Source of the DNA: Laspinema palackyanum D2b
GTDB taxonomy: Bacteria; Cyanobacteriota; Cyanobacteriia; Cyanobacteriales; Laspinemataceae
Strand: one strand, 5' to 3'
NCBI RefSeq assembly: GCF_025370835.1
Contig: NZ_JAMXFE010000013.1
DNA length: 28,155 bases
Below the pieces are notes generated by a model that worked only from the letters and a program-made list of their open reading frames with translations, was not told the origin of the DNA and searched no databases. Below are positions 1 to 21,871 of the stretch, in pieces (the first letter of the stretch is position 1; each line of letters begins with the position of its first letter). The position numbers and the translations under genes were made by a program.

Positions 1-3000
1 GAAACAGTCCCCGATGCCGCTAATTCCAGCAATATCCCAGGGGAAAACTTACCTCAGATACTGTTGTTAACAGAGTATCTGCAATCTGCAACAGACTCCG
101 ATGAAAAGTTATCGGAAATTGAGACAACGGATCCTGAATTAGGGCCAATTTTCCCGATCGCCTCCAGTGACCCCGGGATGTTTTTGTCCCCAGAAATCAT
201 CCAAAATCTCGGGTTGTTGGAAGCACCCAGAAAATTTTGGAATTTCCAGGAATCGTCCAATATATCTGAACTTTCAGGCAAAAAATACTTAGGCAATGTA
301 GCAACAATAAGGGAGACGGATGTAGCTGTTTTATTTAATACGGCTGAAAATTTGTGCAAAAGGGGGGTTTTTTGCGTTAATAGCGCGAGGAGTAATGTCA
401 CGACAAATGTTGTGACAAATGTAGCAGTTGCAGGCCACAGTTTACTCCAATTTGCTCTTAATAACGTTGCCACAGTTGTAATAACGGAAAACTTGCCAAA
501 TGTCTATCCTCTGAAATCAGCAATATGGCTTGAAAATACTGAATTTACAAGGATTACAGACATTGTTGACCGACTCACAAACGTGGCTACAGTTAGCAGT
601 CAAGACTCATTGAATTTAGCGATAAATTTGGGGGGAGGGGAAAATTCAGAAAATTTCCAATTTCAGACACAAAACCCCCTTTCCCCCATTATAGCAGAAG
701 GAAATCCAGGGTCAAGAGGGACGGGAGAAAATTTAGAAACTGCCACGGAGGCGATCGCACAATCGGAGAGTGGCATCCGGATCCTGTCGCCAACTCCGGG
801 GGAAATCTTAGGGGTTCCCGCCACCCCGATTATTGTGCAGTTTCCGGAAGGGACGGAAATCGAACTCCTGGTAAACGGGAATCCAGTATCTTCCGATGCA
901 GTCGGACAAACGGAACGGGATAGTAATACAGGGCTGGTGACGCAAACGTGGGTTGGGATTCCCTTGCAAGACGGGGAAAATGCGATCGCCATTCGAGTAG
1001 TTGGAGCAACGGTCAACGAATCGTTGGTTACCGTATTTGTCTCAGGAGGAGCGGCAGAAATTGCCGTAGAAACGGTTGAGAAAAGAGTGCCTGCCGATGG
1101 ACGGTCCATTGTTAATATTCAGGGACGGTTATTAGATGAAAATGGCAAATTAGTCGAACGGGAAACAGAGATTACCCTCAGTGCCAGTGCGGGAGAATTT
1201 ATTGGGGAAGACCTGAATCTCGATCAGGCTGGATTTCAAGTACCTGTGATCGCGGGGGAATTTACTGCTCAATTGCAATCGCCGTTAGATGCTCAGACCG
1301 TAAGAATTCGGGCGGCAACAGATACAGAAACCATTGCAGGGCGATCGCTAGAAGCATTTACTCAGATGCAGTTCGATACTTACCTCCGCCCGAGTTTAGT
1401 CACTGGGGGAATTAACCTGCGATTTGGACGGCGCGGATTAGACTATTGGGGACGGTTGCGCGACTTTTTACCCCCGGATGAAAATAACGAGTTTAAATTA
1501 GATGTGACAGGTGCAGCGTTTGCCACTGGGGAGTTAGGCGGATGGTTATTTACTGGGGCTTATAATAGCGAGCGATCGCTCAATTGTGATTGTAGCGGGA
1601 ACCGACGCCGGTTATTTTCCGATACGCAATTTAGTGAGCAAAATTATCCCCTCTATGGAGATGCCTCAACCGTTCAGGCAACTGCACCTTCTAGTGATAG
1701 TGTTTTCCTGAGATTTGAACGGTCCTCAGCGGAAGAAAATGCGGGATTAGATTACTTGATGTGGGGAAATTATGGCACTTCAGAATTTGCCAACGAGTCC
1801 CAACAGTTCACTGCCTTAACCCGCGCCTTACAGGGATTTAAGGGGAATTATAACTGGGGACAATTTCAAGTCAGTGCTTTATTTGCCAATGATGTCCAAG
1901 GATTCCAACGGGATGCGATCGCCCCCGATGGCACCAGTGGATTTTACTTCCTCTCTCACCGATTAGTCATCCCCGGGAGTGAAAATTTATTTTTAGAACT
2001 GGAAGAATTAGGACGTCCAGGAAATATCGTCCGGCGACAACAACTCAACCGAGGGTCGGATTATGAAATCGACTATGATCGCGGGTCAATCTTATTCCGT
2101 CGTCCCCTCCTGCGAACCGATGTAGTAACCGTTAATGGGGTAGAAACCGTCGTTGCCAGACGCATCGTTGCCACCTATCAACATGAAGATTTAGATGGAA
2201 ATACCAACCTCTGGGGAGGACGAGTGCGCTATAACTTTTCCCGAGATTTCAACACCCCGGGATGGTTGGGGGCCACCTACCTGCGACAAAATCAAGGCAT
2301 CCGAGATTTTGAACTTTACGGGGCCGATTTCATGCTCACCTTTGGTAAAGAAGCACCCCAAGAAATCACTGATTATAGAGAAGAAGAAGTACCCAATTTC
2401 AGAACCCCAGTCAGCGGCCAATTTATTGCCGAATATGCCCATTCCACCAACGATTCTGAACTTTTAGGACTGGTCACGGGAGAGGCGTACCGATTTGAAT
2501 TAAATGCCATTGGCGGACCTTTTTCTAGTCGCTTATATTATCGAAATACGGATGAAGGATTTGCCAACGATGCCACAGTGAGTTTTGTGCCGGGACAAAC
2601 GCGGTATGGGGCTTTATTAAATAGTCGGTTAACGAATACGACCCTATTACAATTTGCTTATGACCATGAGAAAAACTTTGGCAATTCTCCCCGTCCGATT
2701 AGTGTGATAGAGGATTTCTTAACCCCCAGACGAGAACCAATTCCGGGCAGTGGACTCAACAACTCGTTAACCACCATTTCTGCCGGATTGCAGCAGACCA
2801 TTGGACGGGCAAGCTTGGGATTAGATTGGGTCTGGAGAAACCGCAAAGATGAGGCAGTAAGCAGTCCTTTAGATGCCACTTCTTCTCAGTTGCGATCGCG
2901 CTTCTCCATGCCGATTACCGATACAATTACGGTGCGGGCGCAAAATGAGATTAACCTCTTAAAAGAAGAGGATATTGTTTATCCCGATCGCACTATCTTA

Positions 3001-4140
3001 GGGTTAGATTGGCGCTTAGTTCCCGGAGTCACCCTAGAATTGAATCAAGTCTGGTTTACTGGGGGACAATATGAAGACAATTCCATTACCAGTCTCAACC
3101 TCAATGGGGATTACAACGTGACGGAAGATACCATCGTCACCGGACGCTATTCCTTTATTAACGGACAGACAATGGGGGCCGCATTAGGATTACAACATGG
3201 GTGGACAGTCTTCCCGGGATTTCGCGTTAATTTTGGGTATGAACACGTCTTTGGTTCCCTCTTCAGTCGCACAGGTTCTGGAAGTCAATTTGCTCAACCT
3301 TATGCACCGGGACAGAGTGCTGCTGCATTAGGAATTCTCAGCGGAGACAGTTACAGTGTGGGATTTGACTATACCGGAAATCCCGACTTTGCTGCCAGTG
3401 CCAGATATGAACATCGGTTTTCCAGTAGTGGCAACAATACAGTGATTTCCGCAGCAGCATCAGGTAAACTTACGGACTCCTTGTCTGTCCTCACCCGCTA
3501 TCAACAGGCATCGTCATCCAATCAATTGTTTGATGAAATGGGGGATACGGTGAATTTGCGAATGGGGTTAGCCTATCGCAATCCCAACAGTGATAAATTT
3601 AATGCCTTATTGCGGTATGATTACCGTCAAAATCCCGCGTTGATACCCGATTCGATATTATTTGACTCCGGGACGCGATCGCGAGACCATACCTTTGCCT
3701 TAGAGAGCATTTATGCCCCGAATTGGCGATGGGAATTTTACGGAAAAACTGCCTTAAGGCAAAGTACATCGTACCTCGCCGATGATTTAGCAGGCACAAG
3801 TTTAGTATCTTTAAATCAGTTAAGGGCAACCTATCGATTAGGATATCGCTGGGATGTGATGGGCGAAGGCAGATGGATACATCAAACTAATGCGAATTAT
3901 GATGAATGGGGAGTGGTAGCAGAGGTGGGATATTATTTAACCCCGGATTTGAGACTCGGGTTAGGGTACGTTTTCGGCAAAGTCAGCGATCGCGACTTCA
4001 ATGGCGATCGGTCCGCCTCCGGTCCTTACCTAGGCTTAACGGTCAAATTAAACGAACTCTGGCCCGGATTTGGTCAAGTGATTCCCCCCGCCGCATCAGC
4101 AGTAGAAACCCCCATTCAGGAAACCGGAGGTGCAGAATGA
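1..4140 (+). CDS. Giant beta-rich protein, putative outer-membrane transporter or anchor. It is 5'-truncated, with at least 1379 aa in the window. It has N-terminal degenerate NVATV-type repeats, two invasin/Big_1-like Ig domains, and a ~900-aa Gly/Tyr/Asn-rich beta-barrel-like C-terminal region.
   Basis: The reading frame runs from base 1 to the TGA at 4138-4140 with no in-frame stop. No signal peptide or plausible start lies inside the window, so the true start is upstream. A protein-level repeat L-x-NVATV recurs about four times with different synonymous codons, which supports coding. Residues ~330-430 (VPADGRSIVNIQGRLLDENGKLV...ITLSASAGEF) match the bacterial Ig-like domain 1 pattern. The distal ~900 aa show alternating aromatic/hydrophobic dyads (LGLGYVFG, TYRLGYRWDV) and a beta-signal-like YLGLTVKLNELW, followed by a 26-aa tail. 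The product assignment is inference only. Confidence 0.6.
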   Translation, partial: ETVPDAANSSNIPGENLPQILLLTEYLQSATDSDEKLSEIETTDPELGPIFPIASSDPGMFLSPEIIQNLGLLEAPRKFWNFQESSNISELSGKKYLGNVATIRETDVAVLFNTAENLCKRGVFCVNSARSNVTTNVVTNVAVAGHSLLQFALNNVATVVITENLPNVYPLKSAIWLENTEFTRITDIVDRLTNVATVSSQDSLNLAINLGGGENSENFQFQTQNPLSPIIAEGNPGSRGTGENLETATEAIAQSESGIRILSPTPGEILGVPATPIIVQFPEGTEIELLVNGNPVSSDAVGQTERDSNTGLVTQTWVGIPLQDGENAIAIRVVGATVNESLVTVFVSGGAAEIAVETVEKRVPADGRSIVNIQGRLLDENGKLVERETEITLSASAGEFIGEDLNLDQAGFQVPVIAGEFTAQLQSPLDAQTVRIRAATDTETIAGRSLEAFTQMQFDTYLRPSLVTGGINLRFGRRGLDYWGRLRDFLPPDENNEFKLDVTGAAFATGELGGWLFTGAYNSERSLNCDCSGNRRRLFSDTQFSEQNYPLYGDASTVQATAPSSDSVFLRFERSSAEENAGLDYLMWGNYGTSEFANESQQFTALTRALQGFKGNYNWGQFQVSALFANDVQGFQRDAIAPDGTSGFYFLSHRLVIPGSENLFLELEELGRPGNIVRRQQLNRGSDYEIDYDRGSILFRRPLLRTDVVTVNGVETVVARRIVATYQHEDLDGNTNLWGGRVRYNFSRDFNTPGWLGATYLRQNQGIRDFELYGADFMLTFGKEAPQEITDYREEEVPNFRTPVSGQFIAEYAHSTNDSELLGLVTGEAYRFELNAIGGPFSSRLYYRNTDEGFANDATVSFVPGQTRYGALLNSRLTNTTLLQFAYDHEKNFGNSPRPISVIEDFLTPRREPIPGSGLNNSLTTISAGLQQTIGRASLGLDWVWRNRKDEAVSSPLDATSSQLRSRFSMPITDTITVRAQNEINLLKEEDIVYPDRTILGLDWRLVPGVTLELNQVWFTGGQYEDNSITSLNLNGDYNVTEDTIVTGRYSFINGQTMGAALGLQHGWTVFPGFRVNFGYEHVFGSLFSRTGSGSQFAQPYAPGQSAAALGILSGDSYSVGFDYTGNPDFAASARYEHRFSSSGNNTVISAAASGKLTDSLSVLTRYQQASSSNQLFDEMGDTVNLRMGLAYRNPNSDKFNALLRYDYRQNPALIPDSILFDSGTRSRDHTFALESIYAPNWRWEFYGKTALRQSTSYLADDLAGTSLVSLNQLRATYRLGYRWDVMGEGRWIHQTNANYDEWGVVAEVGYYLTPDLRLGLGYVFGKVSDRDFNGDRSASGPYLGLTVKLNELWPGFGQVIPPAASAVETPIQETGGAE

Positions 4141-7100
4141 AACCCTTAAAATTAGCCGGGAAATGGCCTCAAGGACTTCTGTTGATTTTGCCCGTCATTT
4201 TGAGCTTATTTGCTGCGCCAGTGGCTCGTTCTGAAGGCAGTCGAGAATTAACCACTGGTACGGGTACGGGGTCTCGTCCTTTCTTGGAATATCGAAATGA
4301 CGCGGATACTACCAGTGGTATCCCCCGGAGAACTAGGATTAAAGTGTACGCCAGAGTGGGTGAAACCATTAATCTGGGTTCTAGTGCAATGTGGGTTGGG
4401 AATACTGGTATTGCTAATAATGGTAATATTCTTTATCGAGCACCCAACGGAGCCAGTGGAAATTGTAAGGCTCTTGCTCCTCTGATTGATCCGAATGATC
4501 CCAATACTCCGAATCTCAATTTTGGAAAGATTCAAACCCGCGCTCAAGAGGCAGATATAGACGGACCGTTTTCGGCTACTAATCCCGATGGTTATACTCC
4601 CTGTACAGTTACGGTCGGGCCTGGTCAAGAAGGGGTTTGGGACATAGAATTCACTAGCCCGAATCCAGCTCTTACTGGCAACCCAATTACCACTCTCTTG
4701 GCCACAGGGAATTGGCCTCCTCAAGGCAATAATGATAACTTTGTGACAGCTTGGGATGTAACGGTCCGGAATGCCGGAGGTACAAACATTAATGGTCGGG
4801 CCTTTGCCAACTATCTGGCAATCAATTCGGGTTTTACCACTAATTCTTTTACCGAGATTCGGCCTCTCAATTCTCAGGCATTTATCCTGACTGAAGATGG
4901 TTATATATATCGAGTGAATCTCAATGAAATGAGACCGGCTGGGTTTATCTTTTTTGCTAATAAAAATGGATTTTTAGATGCCAATAGAAACCCTATATTT
5001 CAATCCGTTGGAAAGGATGGTCGGCCCATCATTTTTGACAGCCCTGCGGACGCGCAGAAGGATAATGTAACTCACAAGATTTTTTTTAATAACCCCACAT
5101 TGGGTGATTTACCAGGCGATACAGTTCTAGCCCCTGGCGGGTCTACATGGTTGAGAAACCAACCTGCTCCTCCACCGAGCCCTTCAAATTTTAGGTTTAT
5201 AGGCCAGGAAGGAACCGCAGGTCAAGCGGGGACAAATCCCTTGGGGGGAGACTTTAAATTTGATTCAACTGGAGCAGGAACCTATCGACTGACCATTGAT
5301 GTAAGTGGCAATGGAGTATATGGAGATGGTAATGATGTTATATTACAAGGTCGTGTTGTTTTGGGGAGCAATACGGTGCAATGGGATGGAAGGGATCGCA
5401 ATGGAGTACCGGTCCAGGTGAGTGAGGTCGGTTACGGCGCACAAATTCAGTTTTTTGGAGGGGAAGTACACTTTCCATTTTTTGATGTGGAGCAAAACTC
5501 AAAGGGACTCATTGTACAACGCCTCAATGAACCCCCCGGCTTTCCTCTAAATGACCCAAATTATAATCGCTTTAGAGTCTATTACAACTCTTCCGGTTTT
5601 CCGCAAAGCCCTAATCAACCAAACCCCTTGAGCGCTTTATTGGGAGTGGATAGTTCAAATGGTGCTCATAACTTTGAGGGGAGTGGAACGACTGGTTGGG
5701 GGGATGACCGTGGTATCGATACTTGGGTCTTGTTCCCCTCTCTTCCCTTTGAACTCGAACAAAGGATCGTAATCGCTCAAGCTGACTTAAAAATCACCAA
5801 GTCAGTTAGCCCTACGCCAGCAGTAGCAGGCGGGCCTATTACTTATACCATTACCGTCAGGAATGCCGGTCCCAGTAATATCAGGGCAATAAACCCGGCT
5901 ACCCTGTCCGATATTTTTTCTGCCAATGGCGAAACGGTGACCAACTTGACTTGGACCTGTGAAATTATTCCACCCGCTAACCCTCCAGCAGGCGCAACGG
6001 GAACTTGTATTGATGCAACTGGCACGGGGAATGTGTCTAATGCCCGATTAGCACTCGATGTAGGGTTTAGTGCCAGATATACCCTGACTGGAGTAGTCAT
6101 CCCGACTGCAACACAGAACATTGTGAACCAGGCCACTGTTACTAGACCGAATGATGTCGCAGATCCGGTCAATGATGACAATGACGCAAACAATAATAAT
6201 AATCGCACCGAAACGGCTACGGTAACTGTCCCCTTGACTCCAGGAAATCCACTGGTGGGGGTGGCGAAGGCAGCAGGAACGCCGATTGATAATGGCGATC
6301 GCAGCTTTACGATTCCTTATACTCTAGTCGTGAGAAACTACGGAAATTTACCCCTCACCACTCTCCAAGTGACGGAGAATCTCAATGATACGTTTGCAAA
6401 CATCCCCTATAGTCTGGAACCCACTTCCCTGACCAGTCCCACTCTCACGGTTAATTCTAACTTTAATGGCAATACGGATACAAATCTTTTGGCAACCGGC
6501 AATACTTTAGCCGTGAATACGGAGGCTACAATTAGTTTCCGAGTGCGGATCACTCCTGGCAACAATCTTGGTCCTTTTAATAATCAGGTAACTGCCTCGG
6601 GGACCAGTCCTGGGGGTACTCCCGTGAGTGACCTTTCCACCAATGGCGCGAATCCCGGTGGGAATAATAATGGGGATCCCAGAGAGAGTAATGAGGTAAC
6701 CCCCGTCACTCTACGGGGCAATCCTAAACTGGAGTTACAAAAGCGGATTACTCGGATTAATGGGACAGTTGTGGGTCAGGGTGAGAATCTTACCAATTGG
6801 CCGACCAACTTTGTGCGAGGATTGACCAATCCCAATACTATCCAACCGGGAGATGAAGTAGAATATACAATCTATTTCCTGTCTGCGGGAAGTGGACCGA
6901 TGGATAAGGCGGTGGTCTGTGACCCGTTGCAAAACTATCAGACATTTCGCACGGATACGTTCAATGGTCAAACTCCGACGGAAGGAACATTTGGGGCTGA
7001 GGTGGGGATTGCATTGGCGTTAAATCCTCCGAATCCGGATTTACCGACGGCCTACCTCAGAAGTGCGAACAGTGCCAGTAACCGAGGCCGTTTTTATCCT

Positions 7101-7220
7101 TCAGGAACGGCAACTCCTCTGATTTGTCAGCCCAATGTGAGAGGAGCGGTGGTGGTGGATATTGGTAGCCTGGGGGTGGGTGACTATGGCTTTATCCGCT
7201 TCCGCGTTAGAATAGATTGA
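4137..7220 (+). CDS. Secreted surface protein of 1027 aa with three C-terminal DUF11 (conserved repeat domain, PF01345-like) modules and an N-terminal novel beta-rich region.
   Basis: The ATG at 4137 overlaps the upstream stop (ATGA). A GGAGG lies 7 nt upstream. The N-terminus MKPLKLAGKWPQGLLLILPVILSLFAAPVARSEG is a classic signal peptide. The motifs ADLKITKSVSPTPAVAGGPITYTITVRNAGPSN and KLELQKRITRINGTV...EVEYTIYFLSAG are canonical DUF11 signatures. The protein ends in the beta-strand-like GDYGFIRFRVRID. Confidence 0.75.
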   Translation: MKPLKLAGKWPQGLLLILPVILSLFAAPVARSEGSRELTTGTGTGSRPFLEYRNDADTTSGIPRRTRIKVYARVGETINLGSSAMWVGNTGIANNGNILYRAPNGASGNCKALAPLIDPNDPNTPNLNFGKIQTRAQEADIDGPFSATNPDGYTPCTVTVGPGQEGVWDIEFTSPNPALTGNPITTLLATGNWPPQGNNDNFVTAWDVTVRNAGGTNINGRAFANYLAINSGFTTNSFTEIRPLNSQAFILTEDGYIYRVNLNEMRPAGFIFFANKNGFLDANRNPIFQSVGKDGRPIIFDSPADAQKDNVTHKIFFNNPTLGDLPGDTVLAPGGSTWLRNQPAPPPSPSNFRFIGQEGTAGQAGTNPLGGDFKFDSTGAGTYRLTIDVSGNGVYGDGNDVILQGRVVLGSNTVQWDGRDRNGVPVQVSEVGYGAQIQFFGGEVHFPFFDVEQNSKGLIVQRLNEPPGFPLNDPNYNRFRVYYNSSGFPQSPNQPNPLSALLGVDSSNGAHNFEGSGTTGWGDDRGIDTWVLFPSLPFELEQRIVIAQADLKITKSVSPTPAVAGGPITYTITVRNAGPSNIRAINPATLSDIFSANGETVTNLTWTCEIIPPANPPAGATGTCIDATGTGNVSNARLALDVGFSARYTLTGVVIPTATQNIVNQATVTRPNDVADPVNDDNDANNNNNRTETATVTVPLTPGNPLVGVAKAAGTPIDNGDRSFTIPYTLVVRNYGNLPLTTLQVTENLNDTFANIPYSLEPTSLTSPTLTVNSNFNGNTDTNLLATGNTLAVNTEATISFRVRITPGNNLGPFNNQVTASGTSPGGTPVSDLSTNGANPGGNNNGDPRESNEVTPVTLRGNPKLELQKRITRINGTVVGQGENLTNWPTNFVRGLTNPNTIQPGDEVEYTIYFLSAGSGPMDKAVVCDPLQNYQTFRTDTFNGQTPTEGTFGAEVGIALALNPPNPDLPTAYLRSANSASNRGRFYPSGTATPLICQPNVRGAVVVDIGSLGVGDYGFIRFRVRID

Positions 7221-7352
7221 GCGAGTGTTGGGGAGGGGGTAGTCGCCTCTGGCGTTGTCTAAGCATTCCCTCCCTCCCCGTTATCCCAGCCGATCGCCGG
7301 TGTATTTATGACTTCTTTCCCTCATCCCATCCCCACAGCACTGTTCCCCCGA

Positions 7353-7814
7353 ATGGCATCGGGGATGGCGATCGCAGTCCTGGTTTCCGCTTGCACTCCC
7401 ACTAATCCCACCGTTCCGACCCAATGGAACACCTATCAAAATCAGCGCTTTGGGTTCGAGTTTCCCTATCCCCCAGATTGGGTGGCACTCCCTCCCCCCA
7501 CGAATCAGGATGGAGGTGCGTTTCATGCTCCAGATTACCCCAATATCGAAATTAGAGGATGGGGAACCTTGAAACTCACCGGATTAGAGGAGGCAGAGGA
7601 GACCGCAACGGTTCCCGAGTCTAACTTCACTACGGAACAGGGATTACCGGCCTGGTTAGAGGTGGAGGTTGGGACTCAAGAAAGTGTGATGCGGATGACC
7701 CTGGAATCGGGAGATGTAATTTATACTTGGCAAGGCCGATCGCCCAAAGACCGTTTTGGGGAGTATTACTCTTTGTTTTATGCGATCGCCCAAAATTACC
7801 GCGTCAACCCCTAG
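7353..7814 (+). CDS. Small lipoprotein of 153 aa, hypothetical.
   Basis: This is an internal ATG of the track ORF 7308..7814. It gives MASGMAIAVLVSAC, a lipoprotein signal with lipobox VSA-C. The gene lies immediately downstream of the DUF11 gene on the same strand. The alternative start at 7308 is possible. Confidence 0.5.
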   Translation: MASGMAIAVLVSACTPTNPTVPTQWNTYQNQRFGFEFPYPPDWVALPPPTNQDGGAFHAPDYPNIEIRGWGTLKLTGLEEAEETATVPESNFTTEQGLPAWLEVEVGTQESVMRMTLESGDVIYTWQGRSPKDRFGEYYSLFYAIAQNYRVNP

Positions 7815-7865
7815 AACTGATACAGTCGCCCACCCCGGGAATCAAACCCGTTACAATTATAGATC

Positions 7866-7937
7866 TCTTGCAAAATACTACAGAGATCCCCCCAACCCCC
7901 CTTAATAAGGGGGGCTTTTTAGAATTGTCCAAGAGGG
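7866..7937. repeat. Palindromic dispersed repeat, copy 1 of 2 (R3). It has inverted ends CTCTTGCA.../...TGCAAGAG and a central C6-AA-C6-TTAATAA-G6 core.
   Basis: About 70 bp align with 25428..25499 with few mismatches. The ends are inverted repeats, which makes it MITE-like. Confidence 0.7.
7897..7921 (+). terminator. Rho-independent terminator (CCCCCC-TTAATAA-GGGGGG followed by CTTTTT) ending the operon at 1..7814.
   Basis: A 6-bp G/C stem is followed directly by a T-run, and it sits 80 nt after the lipoprotein stop. It is embedded in repeat R3. Confidence 0.6.
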
Positions 7938-8986: not shown

Positions 8987-10342
8987 ATGCGTCAACTTTT
9001 ATTAAAGGTGTCAATTGGGATGCTCGTCCTCATCTTGAGTGCGTGTGGTGGTGAACCGGAGACTCCGGAAGTCGTCGCCCCCGTCGAGCCATCTCCCCCA
9101 GCAGCGGAGACTCCACCGGAGTCCCCAGAAGCCGGAGAACAACCCGAATCCCCGGAATTTGAAAAACCTCTGGTGCCTCAGCGCCCGGATCCCACATCCA
9201 TTGGGAATTTAATTCCGCCAACCAGTCCAGATGAGCGAGTCCGGCAACTGGACCAGCAAAGGGCCCGACAGGCTCAGGAAAATCCCTTCGGGATCCTCGA
9301 TGTCCAGCCGGTGCCGGTCACTCCTGCACCGGGCGCAGCACCAGCAACTCCTAGAGTTCCGGAATTTCCAGGCCGTGCGGTTCCTGGTCTTCCGGAATTG
9401 CCGGTGGCGATCGGTCCACAATTACCCCCAGGTCAAGCAGTCGCCCAAGCTCAACCCTTTCAACCCTTCCCAGGACCAGGAGCAGGACCAGGAGCAGGAG
9501 CAGGACCAGGAGCAGGACCCGGAGCAGGACCAGGAGCAGGACCAGGACCAGGAGCAGGACCAGGAGCAGGCCGAGGAAATGGAACGGGACCGGGAGCCAG
9601 ACCGGGACCAGGGGGAGGGACTGGAAATGGAACGGGCCCGGGAGCCAGACCCGGAACGCCCGGTCCTCAAGGACCACAAATTCCCGACCTGGTTGGTCAA
9701 GGGGTTCCCTCCCTTCCCGATTTGCCGTTGGGAATTGGCCCAGAACAGCTACCTCCCAGACCGCGACCCCCCGCACAACAAGCGGCGGCGGGTCCACCGG
9801 CTCCCCCTCAACCCCCAACGCTTCCACCTTTAGTGGCGCGAGGGGTCCCAGGTCTTCCGGAACTGCCCCTGGGAATTGGTCCAGAACAACTGCCTCCGGT
9901 GGTCGCCCAGGCCCCTGCGGGTCCCCCTGCTCCGCCATCCCTTCCGCCTTTAGTGGCGCGAGGGGTCCCAGGTCTTCCGGAACTGCCCGTGGGAATTGGT
10001 CCAGAACAGCTTCCCCCTCCACCCCCACCGCCGGTTCCACCACCGCCACCTTCTACGGATTTAGCCCAAGGCACGGAAGTGACCGGGGTGATTCGAGCGG
10101 GGGGTCAAGTGCAAATTATTGTTAAGGCTCCCAATGAGGCCACTTCGCGCTATGTGAAGGTAGGCGATCGCATTGCTCTAGGGGAAGTGCTGGTTAAAGA
10201 GGTGCAAAATTTAGATTCCGCTGACCCGATTGTGATTTTGGAGCAAAATGGCGTTGAGGTCAGTAAAGCTCTGGGAGAACAAGTACCCCCAGAGGCTACT
10301 CCGGGTGGGGTTAACTTGGCTAATGCGGCTTTAGGACGTTAG
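8987..10342 (+). CDS. Proline-rich repetitive lipoprotein (451 aa) with a ~90-aa C-terminal beta domain, possibly PilP/GspC-HR-like.
   Basis: The N-terminus MRQLLLKVSIGMLVLILSACGG carries lipobox LSA-C. It has a (GPGAGA)n tract and four copies of GVPGLPELP(L/V)GIGPEQLPP. The C-terminus reads TGVIRAGGQVQIIVKAPNEATSRYVKVGDRIALGEVLVKEV...VILEQNGVEV. Confidence 0.7.
   Translation: MRQLLLKVSIGMLVLILSACGGEPETPEVVAPVEPSPPAAETPPESPEAGEQPESPEFEKPLVPQRPDPTSIGNLIPPTSPDERVRQLDQQRARQAQENPFGILDVQPVPVTPAPGAAPATPRVPEFPGRAVPGLPELPVAIGPQLPPGQAVAQAQPFQPFPGPGAGPGAGAGPGAGPGAGPGAGPGPGAGPGAGRGNGTGPGARPGPGGGTGNGTGPGARPGTPGPQGPQIPDLVGQGVPSLPDLPLGIGPEQLPPRPRPPAQQAAAGPPAPPQPPTLPPLVARGVPGLPELPLGIGPEQLPPVVAQAPAGPPAPPSLPPLVARGVPGLPELPVGIGPEQLPPPPPPPVPPPPPSTDLAQGTEVTGVIRAGGQVQIIVKAPNEATSRYVKVGDRIALGEVLVKEVQNLDSADPIVILEQNGVEVSKALGEQVPPEATPGGVNLANAALGR
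9470..9660 (+). repeat. In-frame hexa/dodecanucleotide simple repeat (CCAGGAGCAGGA)n, followed by two ~48-bp repeats. It encodes GPGAGA and GNGTGPGARPG tracts.
   Basis: Direct inspection of the sequence. Every unit is a multiple of 3 nt. Confidence 0.8.
9821..10020 (+). repeat. Near-identical 120-bp tandem duplication inside the proline-rich gene.
   Basis: 9821-9900 and 9941-10020 are about 90% identical. Both encode LPPLVARGVPGLPELP(L/V)GIGPEQLPP. Confidence 0.8.
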
Positions 10343-12053: not shown

Positions 12054-12614
12054 ATGTCAATGTTTGATGACAAAAAACAATTTCACCCCGGTCAGAAGGT
12101 CGTCTGTCGCACGGACCCCCAACAGTCCGACTGGTATGAGTGTCAGGTTTTAGAGATTGCGGAGGTCTGTGAAACCGATGAAGAGTGCTACATTAGGACC
12201 ACCTGCAACCGAGTTTTAGGGACGGGAGAGATAGAGGCAGTTGGGTCACCGAGTAAGCGAGGGCATCACCCGAACTCCAAGGCGAATTTGAAGAAAGGGC
12301 CCAAGAGTCGCAAAAAAAACCGAGTCCGTAAGTTGTTTTCCCTGGCCCCGGAAACGGTGGAATGGTTGCAAGACCAACCGATTCCAGCATCCCAGGCGAT
12401 CGATAAGTTGGTGGAACTGGCCCTGGCAACCTCGGCGAGTTGTACAGAACTGCCCCAGGTGGGGTCTAAGGTGGAAATTTTAGAGGGTCCCAAAGCAGGT
12501 CGGATGGGACGGGTCCGCAAAGTAGGGGTCCAGGTGTGGATTGAGGAACTCCCTGGCGATCGCCCGGTGGAACTGTTACCCTCTTATCCTCCTTCGAGTT
12601 TGAAAGAATGTTAG
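12054..12614 (+). CDS. Hypothetical protein of 186 aa. It has a basic patch followed by a possible ribbon-helix-helix core (RKLFSLAPETVEWL...ASQAIDKLVELAL), flanked by two small KOW/Tudor-like beta segments.
   Basis: ORF with an ATG start. The motif reading is inference from the amino-acid pattern only. Confidence 0.5.
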   Translation: MSMFDDKKQFHPGQKVVCRTDPQQSDWYECQVLEIAEVCETDEECYIRTTCNRVLGTGEIEAVGSPSKRGHHPNSKANLKKGPKSRKKNRVRKLFSLAPETVEWLQDQPIPASQAIDKLVELALATSASCTELPQVGSKVEILEGPKAGRMGRVRKVGVQVWIEELPGDRPVELLPSYPPSSLKEC

Positions 12615-16115: not shown

Positions 16116-16931
16116 TTAAATCTCAGTTTGAATCAGAGTTTGCGGCTTTTTTTTTCCATATTTAAGGGCTCCCAATCCGATCAGTAAGAGCGCTGTAGTA
16201 GCTGTAGGTTCTGGAACCTGTTTCGGAGTTTCGGAGGGGATGCCGATATCAATTGTCCCACGACCTGTGCCACTAGCGTCGGCAAAAGTCTGTCCCTCAA
16301 TGCTTTGGTAGCGAACCCCGAAGTTGTTCAGAGCAAAGCTTTGGACTTCACCGGAGAAGGCTAGAGTAGCCTTGAAGGTTCCGGTCTTGCCGGTTTCGAC
16401 GCCGCCATTGGCTCCGCCTTGGCACTTGTTCCCATCGGTAAAGCAGACATCAAGTTGTCCAAAATCATTGGGAAAGTCCCCAGAGCGGTCATTGGTAAAT
16501 AAACCTTCAACCCGGGTGTTGCCTGTACCACTGGTGTTACCAACGCCCATCAGGGTCATCGCGGAACCTAGACTGGTGCCATCCCAATTCCAAACATCAA
16601 ACCCTAAAGCCGAGGTCCGAGAGGTGATGCCATCGCTGGAGGTGTTCTTGAGGTCCACATCAAACATCGCCTCGGTGTAGTCGCGACCGCTGTTAAACCC
16701 AAGAAATGTAAAAATCGCTTCCGATGAGAGTCCCGTAACATCTTTTGTGCTTACGTTTCCGTCAAAGTTAACGGTAAATTCTTTGCCGATGTCGCTTTCA
16801 GAAATACCCACGGCTTTACTGCCGTCAAAAAAAGTAAATGCTGAGGCAGATGCGGCGACAGTCAAGGAGTAAACCCCTACAGAGCCAATGACTGATAGTC
16901 CTAAACTAAGTGGTTTGAGTAATCTAAACAT
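16116..16931 (-). CDS. PEP-CTERM-anchored secreted protein, 271 aa from the internal ATG.
   Basis: It has a signal peptide MFRLLKPLSLGLSVIGSVGVYSLTVAASASA. The C-terminus VPEPTATTALLLIGLGALKYGKKK is a PEP motif, TM helix and basic tail, which is the exosortase sorting signal. An AGGA ribosome-binding site precedes the ATG at 16931. Confidence 0.75.
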   Translation of the reverse strand: MFRLLKPLSLGLSVIGSVGVYSLTVAASASAFTFFDGSKAVGISESDIGKEFTVNFDGNVSTKDVTGLSSEAIFTFLGFNSGRDYTEAMFDVDLKNTSSDGITSRTSALGFDVWNWDGTSLGSAMTLMGVGNTSGTGNTRVEGLFTNDRSGDFPNDFGQLDVCFTDGNKCQGGANGGVETGKTGTFKATLAFSGEVQSFALNNFGVRYQSIEGQTFADASGTGRGTIDIGIPSETPKQVPEPTATTALLLIGLGALKYGKKKPQTLIQTEI

Positions 16932-17399
16932 ATCTTTTTCCTGAATCCTACCAGCATAATGGGTGAAATCGAACCGACGGTTGCACTCTTGCTTGGCTGT
17001 TCTAGTCAGCATATTTATGCCACCCTATTAGGCAATTGCACTAAGCGACAGAATTGGTTAATCCCTTGACCTCTTCTAAAGAGTAGGCCAAACTCCCATT
17101 TTGCGGAGCGATCGCCGGTACTCCATTCAACTGTATCCATCTAGCCATAGGTCTGTCTATAGTTTTCTTCTAGCTTTGTAAAATCTTTATATAAATAAAG
17201 ATAATGCTAGAATTTTCAGAGAGTTTGGCTCGGCACAAATACAAAGTTTTGATAAAGTCCGAGATTTTACGGATCAACAAGTCCTCAATAATAATGATTG
17301 CGGACTTGTTGACTAAGAGTGCTTAACCTATTCTTACCTCATGGAATTGAGATTGTCGTCAGCAAAATCGCGTAACTTGGGTAAAGATAAATAAAGAGA

Positions 17400-20809: not shown

Positions 20810-21871
20810 ATGACTCTATCTTCTGAAGGCTCCTCACAACTTCAATCTGAAAAGCAACCTTGGATTGCAGTAATTTTATCACGAGTTATCCCAGGTATTG
20901 GGCAAATTTACGCCGGATATTTATTACGCGGGGTGATCATTTTTGCAGTTTGGAGCGGAAGTGCGATGATGGCCCTTTTGTCATTATTACAACCTGATAT
21001 TAATGGGGGGATTGTAGGGCTTGGATTGCTGATATATTTTGCTTTAGGCTTTTGGAATCTTTTTGACGCTCATTCCTCCGCAAGAAAGAGTAATAGCCCG
21101 CAATTTGAAACGTTACGAAAATCTAAAAAAGACCCTTGGTTGGCTGTTTTTCTTTCCCTGTTGATTCCGGGTTTGGGTCATTTCTACATTAAAAAAATAG
21201 GTGAAGGAATTATTTTTTTTATTGCTACGATAGTCGTTGCCATAATTGCACCTAAAATATTTGTGGGAATATTGCAATTTGGGGCCGCTTTCCATGTTTA
21301 TCAATTCATGAACAAGAGAAAAGACCTTTCTCAAGAGAAAACACCCTTACTCATTGGTTTATTCGTTATTGCTTCTCTGGTTGTATCAAGTGCAATATCT
21401 TCCATCGCCAGTTCTGCCCTTGAAACTCGCTATATACCCTCTGCCTCTATGATACCTACTTTGCAAATAAATGATCGCCTAATTGTTGATAAATTAACTT
21501 ATAAGTTTAATCTACCTGAACGGGGAGATATTATTCTTTTTTCGCCTACTCAATTTCTCCAAGAGCAAAATTTCACAGACCCTTTTATCTTCCGAATTAT
21601 CGGGTTACCTGGAGAAACAGTGGAAGTCATTAATGGACAAGTCAAGATTAATAATCAGCCTCTGGAAGAACCCTATATTGCTCAACCTCCCACCTATCAG
21701 TACGGACCCTCTACGGTTCCTGAAAATAATTATTTTGTGTTAGGAGATAACCGCAATAATAGCTATGATAGCCAATATTGGGGATTCGTTCCTAAAGAAA
21801 ACATTTTTGGAAAAGCTCAGACAATATTTTGGCCCCTAGATAGGCGGGGACCGATTCAACAATTGCCCTAA
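20810..21871 (+). CDS. lepB: Signal peptidase I (LepB) catalytic domain fused to a ~190-aa N-terminal extension. The extension contains a tandemly duplicated 2-TM module, W(I/L)AVxLSxxIPGxGQ(I/F)Y. Total 353 aa.
   Basis: The C-terminal half has S-box SMIPTL, GDIILF, GLPGETVEV and GDNRNNSYDSQYWGFVP. The N-terminal half has two homologous hydrophobic modules (PWIAVILSRVIPGIGQIYAGYLLRG and PWLAVFLSLLIPGLGHFYIKKIGEG). Confidence 0.8.
   Translation: MTLSSEGSSQLQSEKQPWIAVILSRVIPGIGQIYAGYLLRGVIIFAVWSGSAMMALLSLLQPDINGGIVGLGLLIYFALGFWNLFDAHSSARKSNSPQFETLRKSKKDPWLAVFLSLLIPGLGHFYIKKIGEGIIFFIATIVVAIIAPKIFVGILQFGAAFHVYQFMNKRKDLSQEKTPLLIGLFVIASLVVSSAISSIASSALETRYIPSASMIPTLQINDRLIVDKLTYKFNLPERGDIILFSPTQFLQEQNFTDPFIFRIIGLPGETVEVINGQVKINNQPLEEPYIAQPPTYQYGPSTVPENNYFVLGDNRNNSYDSQYWGFVPKENIFGKAQTIFWPLDRRGPIQQLP

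Follow-up and report, generated by a model that had tools for sequence, protein, structure and literature searches.

Genes 1 and 2, at the start of a 28,155-nucleotide stretch of DNA from the cyanobacterium Laspinema palackyanum D2b (contig NZ_JAMXFE010000013.1 of assembly GCF_025370835.1; hereafter the window, numbered from its first base), encode a giant predicted outer-membrane beta-barrel protein and an adhesin- or pilin-like partner. They are genes D and E of a conserved five-gene core operon, A-B-C-D-E. What does such a barrel do for the cell? We propose that protein D serves the isopeptide-stabilised fibre or adhesin proteins of its operon as a dedicated conduit through the outer membrane and as their anchor, an assignment of function that we consider evenly balanced between right and wrong. 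We put forward more tentatively, as a possibility, that D and its partners constitute an undescribed, widespread outer-membrane secretion or assembly pathway in which D, with ~38 strands, is the largest single-chain barrel known. A sequence-only reading of the window had suggested a three-gene cassette with a lipoprotein as its third member. The window instead holds the 3' part of the five-gene operon, three conserved genes lie further upstream, and the lipoprotein gene is a lineage-specific neighbour that is not conserved with genes 1 and 2.

Coupling of genes 1 and 2

The two genes and the signal that joins them are as follows.

1..4140, plus strand: gene 1 (gene D of the operon), 1379 codons that form the 3' part of a gene for an outer-membrane protein of ~1510 amino acids (aa), with start and signal peptide upstream of the window
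4126..4140, plus strand: coupling signal from gene 1 to gene 2, read from the sequence (GGAGG at 4126-4130, ATGA stop/start overlap at 4137-4140)
4137..7220, plus strand: gene 2 (operon gene E, "cargo"), a 1027-aa adhesin-/pilin-like protein predicted to be exported by Sec

Frame 1 is uninterrupted from base 1 to the TGA at 4138-4140 and offers no start codon within the window, as expected from the earlier suggestion that gene 1 spans at least 1379 aa and begins upstream. The full-length homolog P0001 (1511 aa, 90% identical to gene 1) starts with a typical signal peptide, MHFQ...LPGFAQ. The TGA of gene 1 overlaps the ATG of gene 2 at 4137-4140, as had been read, and the GGAGG reported upstream of that ATG is present with a spacing of 6 rather than 7 nucleotides (nt). 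The identical 4-nt stop/start overlap between D and E recurs in three other loci (L083, L085 and L087). Genes 1 and 2 are translationally coupled.

Gene 1 combines Ig-like domains with a giant barrel

Gene 1 encodes the following regions, delineated with the help of a structural model.

1..786, plus strand: N-terminal region (aa 1-262), lineage-specific and poorly conserved, with tblastn matches in close relatives only
787..1380, plus strand: two immunoglobulin (Ig)-like beta-sandwich domains (aa 263-460) of the invasin D3 / GH2 C-terminal type
1381..4053, plus strand: predicted giant transmembrane beta-barrel (aa 461-1351) of about 38-40 strands
1900..2133, plus strand: small all-beta insert (aa 634-711) after the first ~7 barrel strands, with short strands at model residues 372-449

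The AlphaFold2 model of aa 263-1379, built from 76 homologs, is confident (predicted local distance difference test score, pLDDT, 80.3; predicted template modelling score, pTM, 0.72). It places two beta-sandwich domains first, followed by ~7 long strands, an all-beta insert of ~80 residues and ~32 further long strands. DSSP counts 39 long strands after the Ig domains, a number compatible with 38 or 40, and the model thus predicts a single-chain barrel of about 38-40 strands. Structure matches to the C-terminal 890 aa in Foldseek are exclusively outer-membrane barrels, and gene 1 fits no solved barrel class. The invasin-type Ig domains and the very large barrel-like region behind them, both recognised in the sequence-only reading, are therefore borne out by the model and by the fold matches, and the transmembrane barrel that structure prediction might have failed to produce was obtained with confidence. 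For comparison, SprA, with 36 strands, is still called the largest known barrel (bioRxiv 10.64898/2026.03.07.710327).

No stretch of the barrel family is more conserved than the insert at aa 634-711 (GTSGxYFLS...DYEIDYDRGxxLFR, with invariant G, G, Y, D and Y), which may act as a plug of the barrel. Sequence searches of Pfam, NCBIfam and the PDB with gene 1 give nothing above threshold and no family, so that a full-length match to a known barrel family such as LptD, BamA/TamA or usher, which would have argued against a novel system, is absent from Pfam and NCBIfam. The only sub-threshold matches are to DUF2490, the Ig-like GH2_C5 and, at 11 bits, SprA.

In the Laspinema barrel protein, the first ~390 aa (L083:10001-11180, P0001) contain ~3 tandem repeats of ~55 aa (PQILLLTE.LQ...DEKLSE.ETTSGNGFPETVADAANLGIASGE). 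The window starts inside the last of these P0001-type repeats (window 1-180), and most homologs lack the repeat region.

Gene 2 has the layout of an adhesin

The gene 2 protein, identical (100%) to P0114, "DUF11 domain-containing protein [Laspinema sp. D1]", begins with an N-terminal hydrophobic signal sequence, in agreement with the signal peptide read earlier, and continues with three parts.

4233..5771, plus strand: head (aa 33-545), mostly beta and of no assigned family, with an invariant EGS at the mature N-terminus
5772..6683, plus strand: two CLIPPER-type (DUF11, DUF7507) CnaA-like stalk domains (aa 546-849), the first with a conserved Lys-Asp-Asn triad
6684..7217, plus strand: C-terminal module (aa 850-1027), a family-specific CLIPPER-like variant of ~180 aa

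DUF11 has been renamed CLIPPER, a CnaA-like domain with an intramolecular Lys-Asn isopeptide bond shown crystallographically, and such domains are typical of extracellular fibrillar adhesins and pilins (PMC12617251). The two stalk domains exceed the cutoffs of Pfam (PF01345 DUF11 at aa 550-686, 56.3 bits versus 24.6; PF24346 DUF7507/CLIPPER_2 at aa 709-832, 28.8 bits versus 27) and of NCBIfam (TIGR01451, 48.7 bits versus 24). Gene 2 carries the Lys-Asp-Asn triad within a CnaA-like fold: an alignment of 67 sequences has K555 and D592 in every member and N664 in at least 90%. In the AlphaFold2 model (pLDDT 86.9), the stalk structurally resembles the CLIPPER structure 9ifr and the Gram-positive pilins BcpA, RrgB, EbpB and Spb1.

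Three DUF11 domains had been counted in gene 2. Two of them stand above the Pfam cutoffs; the third, at aa 850-1027, lies below the Pfam thresholds and is a CLIPPER-like variant, as indicated by cross-matches between hidden Markov models (HMMs). This module may serve as the protein's address or anchor at the barrel. The protein ends in ...GDYGFIRFRVRID, exactly as transcribed in the sequence-only reading. The N-terminal ~540 aa, which had been left unassigned, likewise match no Pfam family and no known fold. Residues E33, G34, S35 and L38, just after the predicted signal-peptide cleavage site (window 4233-4250), are invariant in 67 homologs, which suggests a specific role for the mature N-terminus of the head. 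The overall layout of head, stalk and anchor is that of an adhesin, and gene 2 is fibrillar-adhesin- or pilin-like.

The only close homolog of gene 2 outside the cyanobacteria belongs to Chloroflexia bacterium SDU3-3 (L086:10001-23315), where the next genes downstream form an extracellular contractile injection system (eCIS) cluster that includes genes for sheath, tube and baseplate.

A conserved operon joins the barrel to CLIPPER proteins

The operon A-B-C-D-E is present in every one of six neighbourhoods examined, those of Laspinema sp. A4/D2d (L083), Oscillatoria acuminata PCC 6304 (L087), Nostoc sp. UHCC 0870 (L081), a Pseudanabaena-type contig (L084), Synechocystis sp. PCC 7509 (L085) and Leptolyngbya sp. 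NIES-3755 (L090). Its genes are as follows.

Gene A: DUF7925 protein of ~820-895 aa
Gene B: protein of ~186-199 aa with a signal peptide and a single CLIPPER-like domain
Gene C: protein of ~490-900 aa with CLIPPER and SdrD_B domains
Gene D: the barrel, whose start mostly overlaps or abuts the stop of gene C
Gene E: one or more large "cargo" proteins

DUF7925 of gene A is likewise a predicted isopeptide domain. In L081, L085 and L090 the stop of C and the start of D overlap; in L084 and in a further locus, L091, the two genes abut or share one base, and L083 and L087 leave a gap of 6 nt between them. Downstream of E, O. acuminata has the gene order of the window (a homolog of gene 3, next a methyltransferase, and onward), and the window therefore begins inside gene D of this operon. 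Among 80 cyanobacterial loci, C lies upstream of D in essentially all those whose flank suffices, and A and B are found in about half. A second form of the operon consists of a short CLIPPER protein, D, a beta-helix/OmpA protein and E.

A gene for a right-handed, NosD-like beta-helix protein directly follows the barrel gene in many operons (for example, L091, L084 and L085) and is absent from that of Laspinema. Often the beta-helix protein has a C-terminal OmpA domain and is translationally coupled.

How tightly are gene 2-type proteins linked to the barrel? In 55 of the 65 loci whose flank reaches 4 kb or more, an HMM of the C-terminal module finds the module in full length at the extreme C-terminus of a protein encoded downstream on the same strand; no copy lies upstream or antisense. 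The N-terminal parts of these module-bearing proteins vary, comprising a gene-2-type head (19 loci), tandem CLIPPER domains or GEVED. All four cyanobacterial gene-2-type proteins that were traced to genomes adjoin a barrel gene. The close pairing of gene 1 with a DUF11 gene, first seen in this one window, is thus kept across cyanobacteria, and in other phyla the partners are fused. Several paralogous D operons coexist in some genomes, and each of them includes a barrel of its own (L016/L050 and L036/L038). This pattern, in which each barrel has its own cargo, argues for a dedicated system rather than a general secretion pathway.

The barrel family beyond cyanobacteria

An exhaustive single-sequence HMMER search with the barrel alone retrieves, at 50% identity, 1,875 clusters with E <= 1e-3, of which 1,268 reach E <= 1e-10. 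Proteins of up to ~4,000 aa carry the barrel at their C-terminus. Sampled distant members share a recurring order, [CLIPPER / CarboxypepD_reg / SdrD_B]-[OmpA or 3xSLH, when present]-[invasin-like Ig]-[barrel]. Barrel-CLIPPER fusions occur in both Proteobacteria and Desulfobacterota. CLIPPER, CarboxypepD_reg and SdrD_B domains are part of the barrel polypeptide itself in Desulfosarcina, in a gammaproteobacterium and in many metagenomic members. The compact operons of Desulfosarcina and the gammaproteobacterium encode a B-like protein of ~165 aa and a fused C-D protein, and a C-like region maps within P0103. These fusions provide independent evidence that the barrel and the CLIPPER proteins physically cooperate.

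P0063 carries OmpA domains behind its barrel; in other members, OmpA or SLH domains stand ahead of the Ig-barrel unit. The position of the OmpA domains in P0063 argues that the termini of the barrel are periplasmic.

Many members of the family (P0013, P0014, P0017, P0021 and others) bear the NCBI name "TonB-dependent receptor", which is probably a systematic misannotation.

Comparison with known systems

Protein D was compared with the large barrels and surface-assembly systems of bacteria. It resembles the chaperone-usher systems (PapC/FimD) in that a dedicated barrel shares an operon with Ig-fold fibre subunits and in that the barrel protein has Ig-like domains, here probably periplasmic. 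As in gene 1, a small beta-module is inserted early in the barrel of ushers, where it serves as the plug. However, ushers have 24 strands rather than ~38, and the subunits here are complete CnaA-like CLIPPER domains instead of strand-deficient pilins. Gene 1 has no match to the usher family PF00577, and no PapD-like chaperone is present among the six Laspinema operon proteins (Pfam) or the labels of seven other operons.

Type V systems are similar in joining invasin-type Ig domains to a barrel, and the fused homologs of D have an N-terminal "passenger" before a C-terminal barrel. In contrast, the gene 1 barrel is ~3 times as large as their 12-strand barrels, and its cargo is a separate polypeptide. 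Unlike in intimin and invasin, the Ig domains of gene 1 precede the barrel; this reversed order, and a size beyond that of autotransporter, TpsB and usher barrels, had been noticed from the sequence and are seen in the model. Gene 1 has no match at E <= 0.1 to the type Va/Ve autotransporter families (PF03797, PF03895 and PF11924) or to POTRA/Omp85, which distinguishes it from the Omp85/TpsB/BamA/TamA proteins with their POTRA domains and 16-strand barrels. LptD, with a jellyroll and a 26-strand barrel, is matched neither in Pfam nor in NCBIfam and yields Foldseek TMq values of 0.11-0.17.

Type IX secretion (T9SS) offers a parallel in scale. SprA is a very large single-chain barrel of 36 strands able to pass folded proteins, and T9SS cargo bears a conserved beta-sandwich domain at its extreme C-terminus. 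SprA is also the best Foldseek match of gene 1, at a TMq of only 0.15. However, gene 1 does not belong to the SprA/Sov family (TIGR04189, 11.4 bits versus a cutoff of 200, E = 0.031), and GldLM/PorKN-like genes are absent nearby. One SprA serves cargo genes scattered over the genome, whereas each barrel here has adjacent cargo, and the C-terminal module of gene 2 is CLIPPER-like, unlike the T9SS C-terminal domain.

Gene 2 carries CLIPPER domains with the Lys-Asp-Asn triad, like the CLIPPER fibrillar adhesins, and resembles sortase-assembled Gram-positive pilins in structure. Gene 2 differs from them in lying beside a giant barrel gene in a diderm, without LPXTG or sortase, and in having as its anchor a special CLIPPER-like module instead of an OmpA-like domain or a cell-wall sorting signal.

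The closest description in the literature concerns Deinococcus radiodurans, for which AAF11946, UID71982 and UID69687 are tabulated as Ig domains with a "38-stranded" barrel (PMC9388160 Table S3). By description, this Deinococcus class has invasin-D3-like Ig domains at the N-terminus and then a barrel predicted at 38 strands. Gene 1 likewise has such Ig domains in front of its barrel, and its 39 counted strands are compatible with 38 or 40; the table gives no function, operon context or CLIPPER/DUF11 link. The sequence-only reading had not recognised the pairing of genes 1 and 2 as a described system. A literature search for papers that connect DUF11/CLIPPER proteins with a barrel, an usher or secretion yielded none that describes the pairing; however, the combination of Ig domains with a 38-stranded barrel had already been listed for Deinococcus (PMC9388160). 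The paper that defined CLIPPER is silent on barrels, ushers and secretion and names no export route (PMC12617251), and a paper on Synechococcus PCC 11901 uses no more than the signal peptide of a DUF11 protein.

Because gene D belongs to none of the T9SS, usher and type V families, its likenesses to these systems concern how it may work, not what it belongs to. What is new here is a dedicated barrel with cognate surface proteins, drawn from families unrelated to any described system.

Proposed function and alternatives

The analysis shows the fold of the barrel, the domains of the proteins, their genes' translational coupling, conserved synteny and fusions; topology, passage through the barrel, the role of the C-terminal module and surface exposure are inferred in the following route for the operon proteins. 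Sec would carry all of them across the inner membrane. D would then insert into the outer membrane with its termini and Ig domains toward the periplasm, and its very wide lumen could pass folded or partly folded CLIPPER proteins, namely E and probably A, B and C. By recognising or holding the common C-terminal module of E, D would leave the head pointing outward on a protease- and heat-resistant stalk. OmpA or SLH modules, where they are fused to D or encoded beside it, could brace the complex on the cell wall.

Several observations weigh against this model. The examined operons encode no recognisable energy source or periplasmic chaperone, 10 of the 65 loci lack the C-terminal module within 10 kb, and the Chloroflexia homolog of gene 2 (bacterium SDU3-3, L086) has no barrel gene nearby. 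Moreover, the peptidoglycan-binding domains of the fused proteins sit between the CLIPPER domains and the barrel, an arrangement equally compatible with CLIPPER parts that remain in the periplasm.

In one alternative, D would mainly be an envelope scaffold or tether. D would tie the outer membrane to peptidoglycan, as SlpA, OmpM and OmpA do, and the CLIPPER proteins would be struts in the periplasm or at the inner leaflet, with no export through the barrel. Peptidoglycan-binding OmpA or SLH modules fused to D or encoded beside it in many lineages speak for a tether, as do the Ig domains and both termini of D, which are probably periplasmic. However, known tethers are barrels of 8 to 30 strands that work without a set of adhesin-like partners of their own, CLIPPER domains typify extracellular proteins (PMC12617251), gene 2 is laid out as head, stalk and anchor like an adhesin, and the Laspinema D protein itself lacks a peptidoglycan-binding domain. 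We consider a scaffold unlikely.

An autotransporter-like mode, in which D (with C) exports only its own N-terminal passenger and gene 2 is separately exported and merely co-regulated, is quite improbable. It would suit the distant members that are single chains of 1,600-4,000 aa with N-terminal CLIPPER/SdrD_B "passengers" and a C-terminal barrel, and whose operons have no downstream cargo gene. In cyanobacteria, however, downstream cargo with a dedicated C-terminal module is kept in 85% of loci and is translationally coupled, and a 38-strand pore far exceeds what an unfolded or hairpin passenger needs; the lack of any autotransporter family match reported above points the same way. Nutrient uptake through D as a TonB-dependent receptor or large porin, as the source annotations "TonB-dependent receptor" would have it, is very hard to credit and is effectively refuted as a family assignment, given no match to Plug (PF07715), TonB_dep_Rec (PF00593) or an NCBIfam TonB-receptor model at E <= 0.1, ~38 strands rather than 22, and examined neighbourhoods with adhesin-like genes only and no ExbBD/TonB or ABC importer genes.

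Gene 3 and the rest of the window

Downstream of gene 2, the transcription unit ends with two further features.

7308..7814, plus strand: gene 3, a 168-aa putative lipoprotein with the lipobox VSAC
7896..7921, plus strand: intrinsic terminator, an 8-bp GC-rich stem followed by CTTTTT (hairpin and T-run at 7896-7914; fold z = -2.7)

The motif ...AIAVLVSAC... of gene 3 fits the lipobox pattern [LVI][ASTVI][GAS]C after a hydrophobic segment, and VSAC is kept in close homologs, in keeping with the lipoprotein gene that had been predicted to follow gene 2. A spacer of 87 nt separates genes 2 and 3 and contains a G-rich/C-rich inverted repeat (GGGGAGGGGG...CCCTCCCTCCCC) at 7229-7280. As a terminator, this repeat was rejected: the hairpin folds no more stably than shuffled sequence (z = -1.4) and lacks a T-run, and read-through from gene 2 into gene 3 is therefore plausible. 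The GC-rich hairpin and T-run after gene 3 match the terminator placed there earlier, and the element at 7896-7921 marks the end of the transcription unit. Gene 3 is thus probably co-transcribed with genes 1 and 2 in this organism.

Gene 3 is nevertheless not part of the conserved system. It adjoins the barrel operon only in Laspinema and Oscillatoria acuminata; its homologs (n=99) are mostly from Nostocales, and the one checked, in Nostoc linckia, lies among unrelated genes. Synteny and this Nostoc context rule out the lipoprotein as a third component of the system.

Elsewhere in the window, a plus-strand gene at 20810-21871 encodes a signal peptidase I (Peptidase_S26) whose N-terminal extension is unusually long and matches TM2, DUF6677 and DUF5683. 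Open reading frames at 8987-10342 (plus strand, 451 aa), 12054-12614 (plus strand, 186 aa) and 16116-17012 (minus strand, 298 aa) have no Pfam family, and the first two have equivalents at the same position in O. acuminata (L087) and Laspinema (L083). An Rfam scan of the window gives no match.

Implications

Apart from type I, type V, type IX and chaperone-usher secretion, we know of no route by which diderm bacteria place folded, covalently cross-linked Ig-type adhesins on their surface. The Laspinema locus ties CLIPPER proteins, by coupling, synteny and fusion, to one very common, uncharacterised family of barrels predicted to exceed the largest solved barrel in size. If the proposed model is true, D and its partners would be a diderm counterpart of the sortase-built pili and adhesins of Gram-positive bacteria and, in effect, a new "type" of secretion system, with D defining a new outer-membrane translocon or anchor. 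Many genes now called "hypothetical" or misnamed "TonB-dependent receptor" would thereby be explained. The very wide natural pore may also be of interest for nanopore engineering. For filamentous cyanobacteria, the system would provide a handle on adhesion, on biofilm and mat formation and possibly on the biology of surface fibres.

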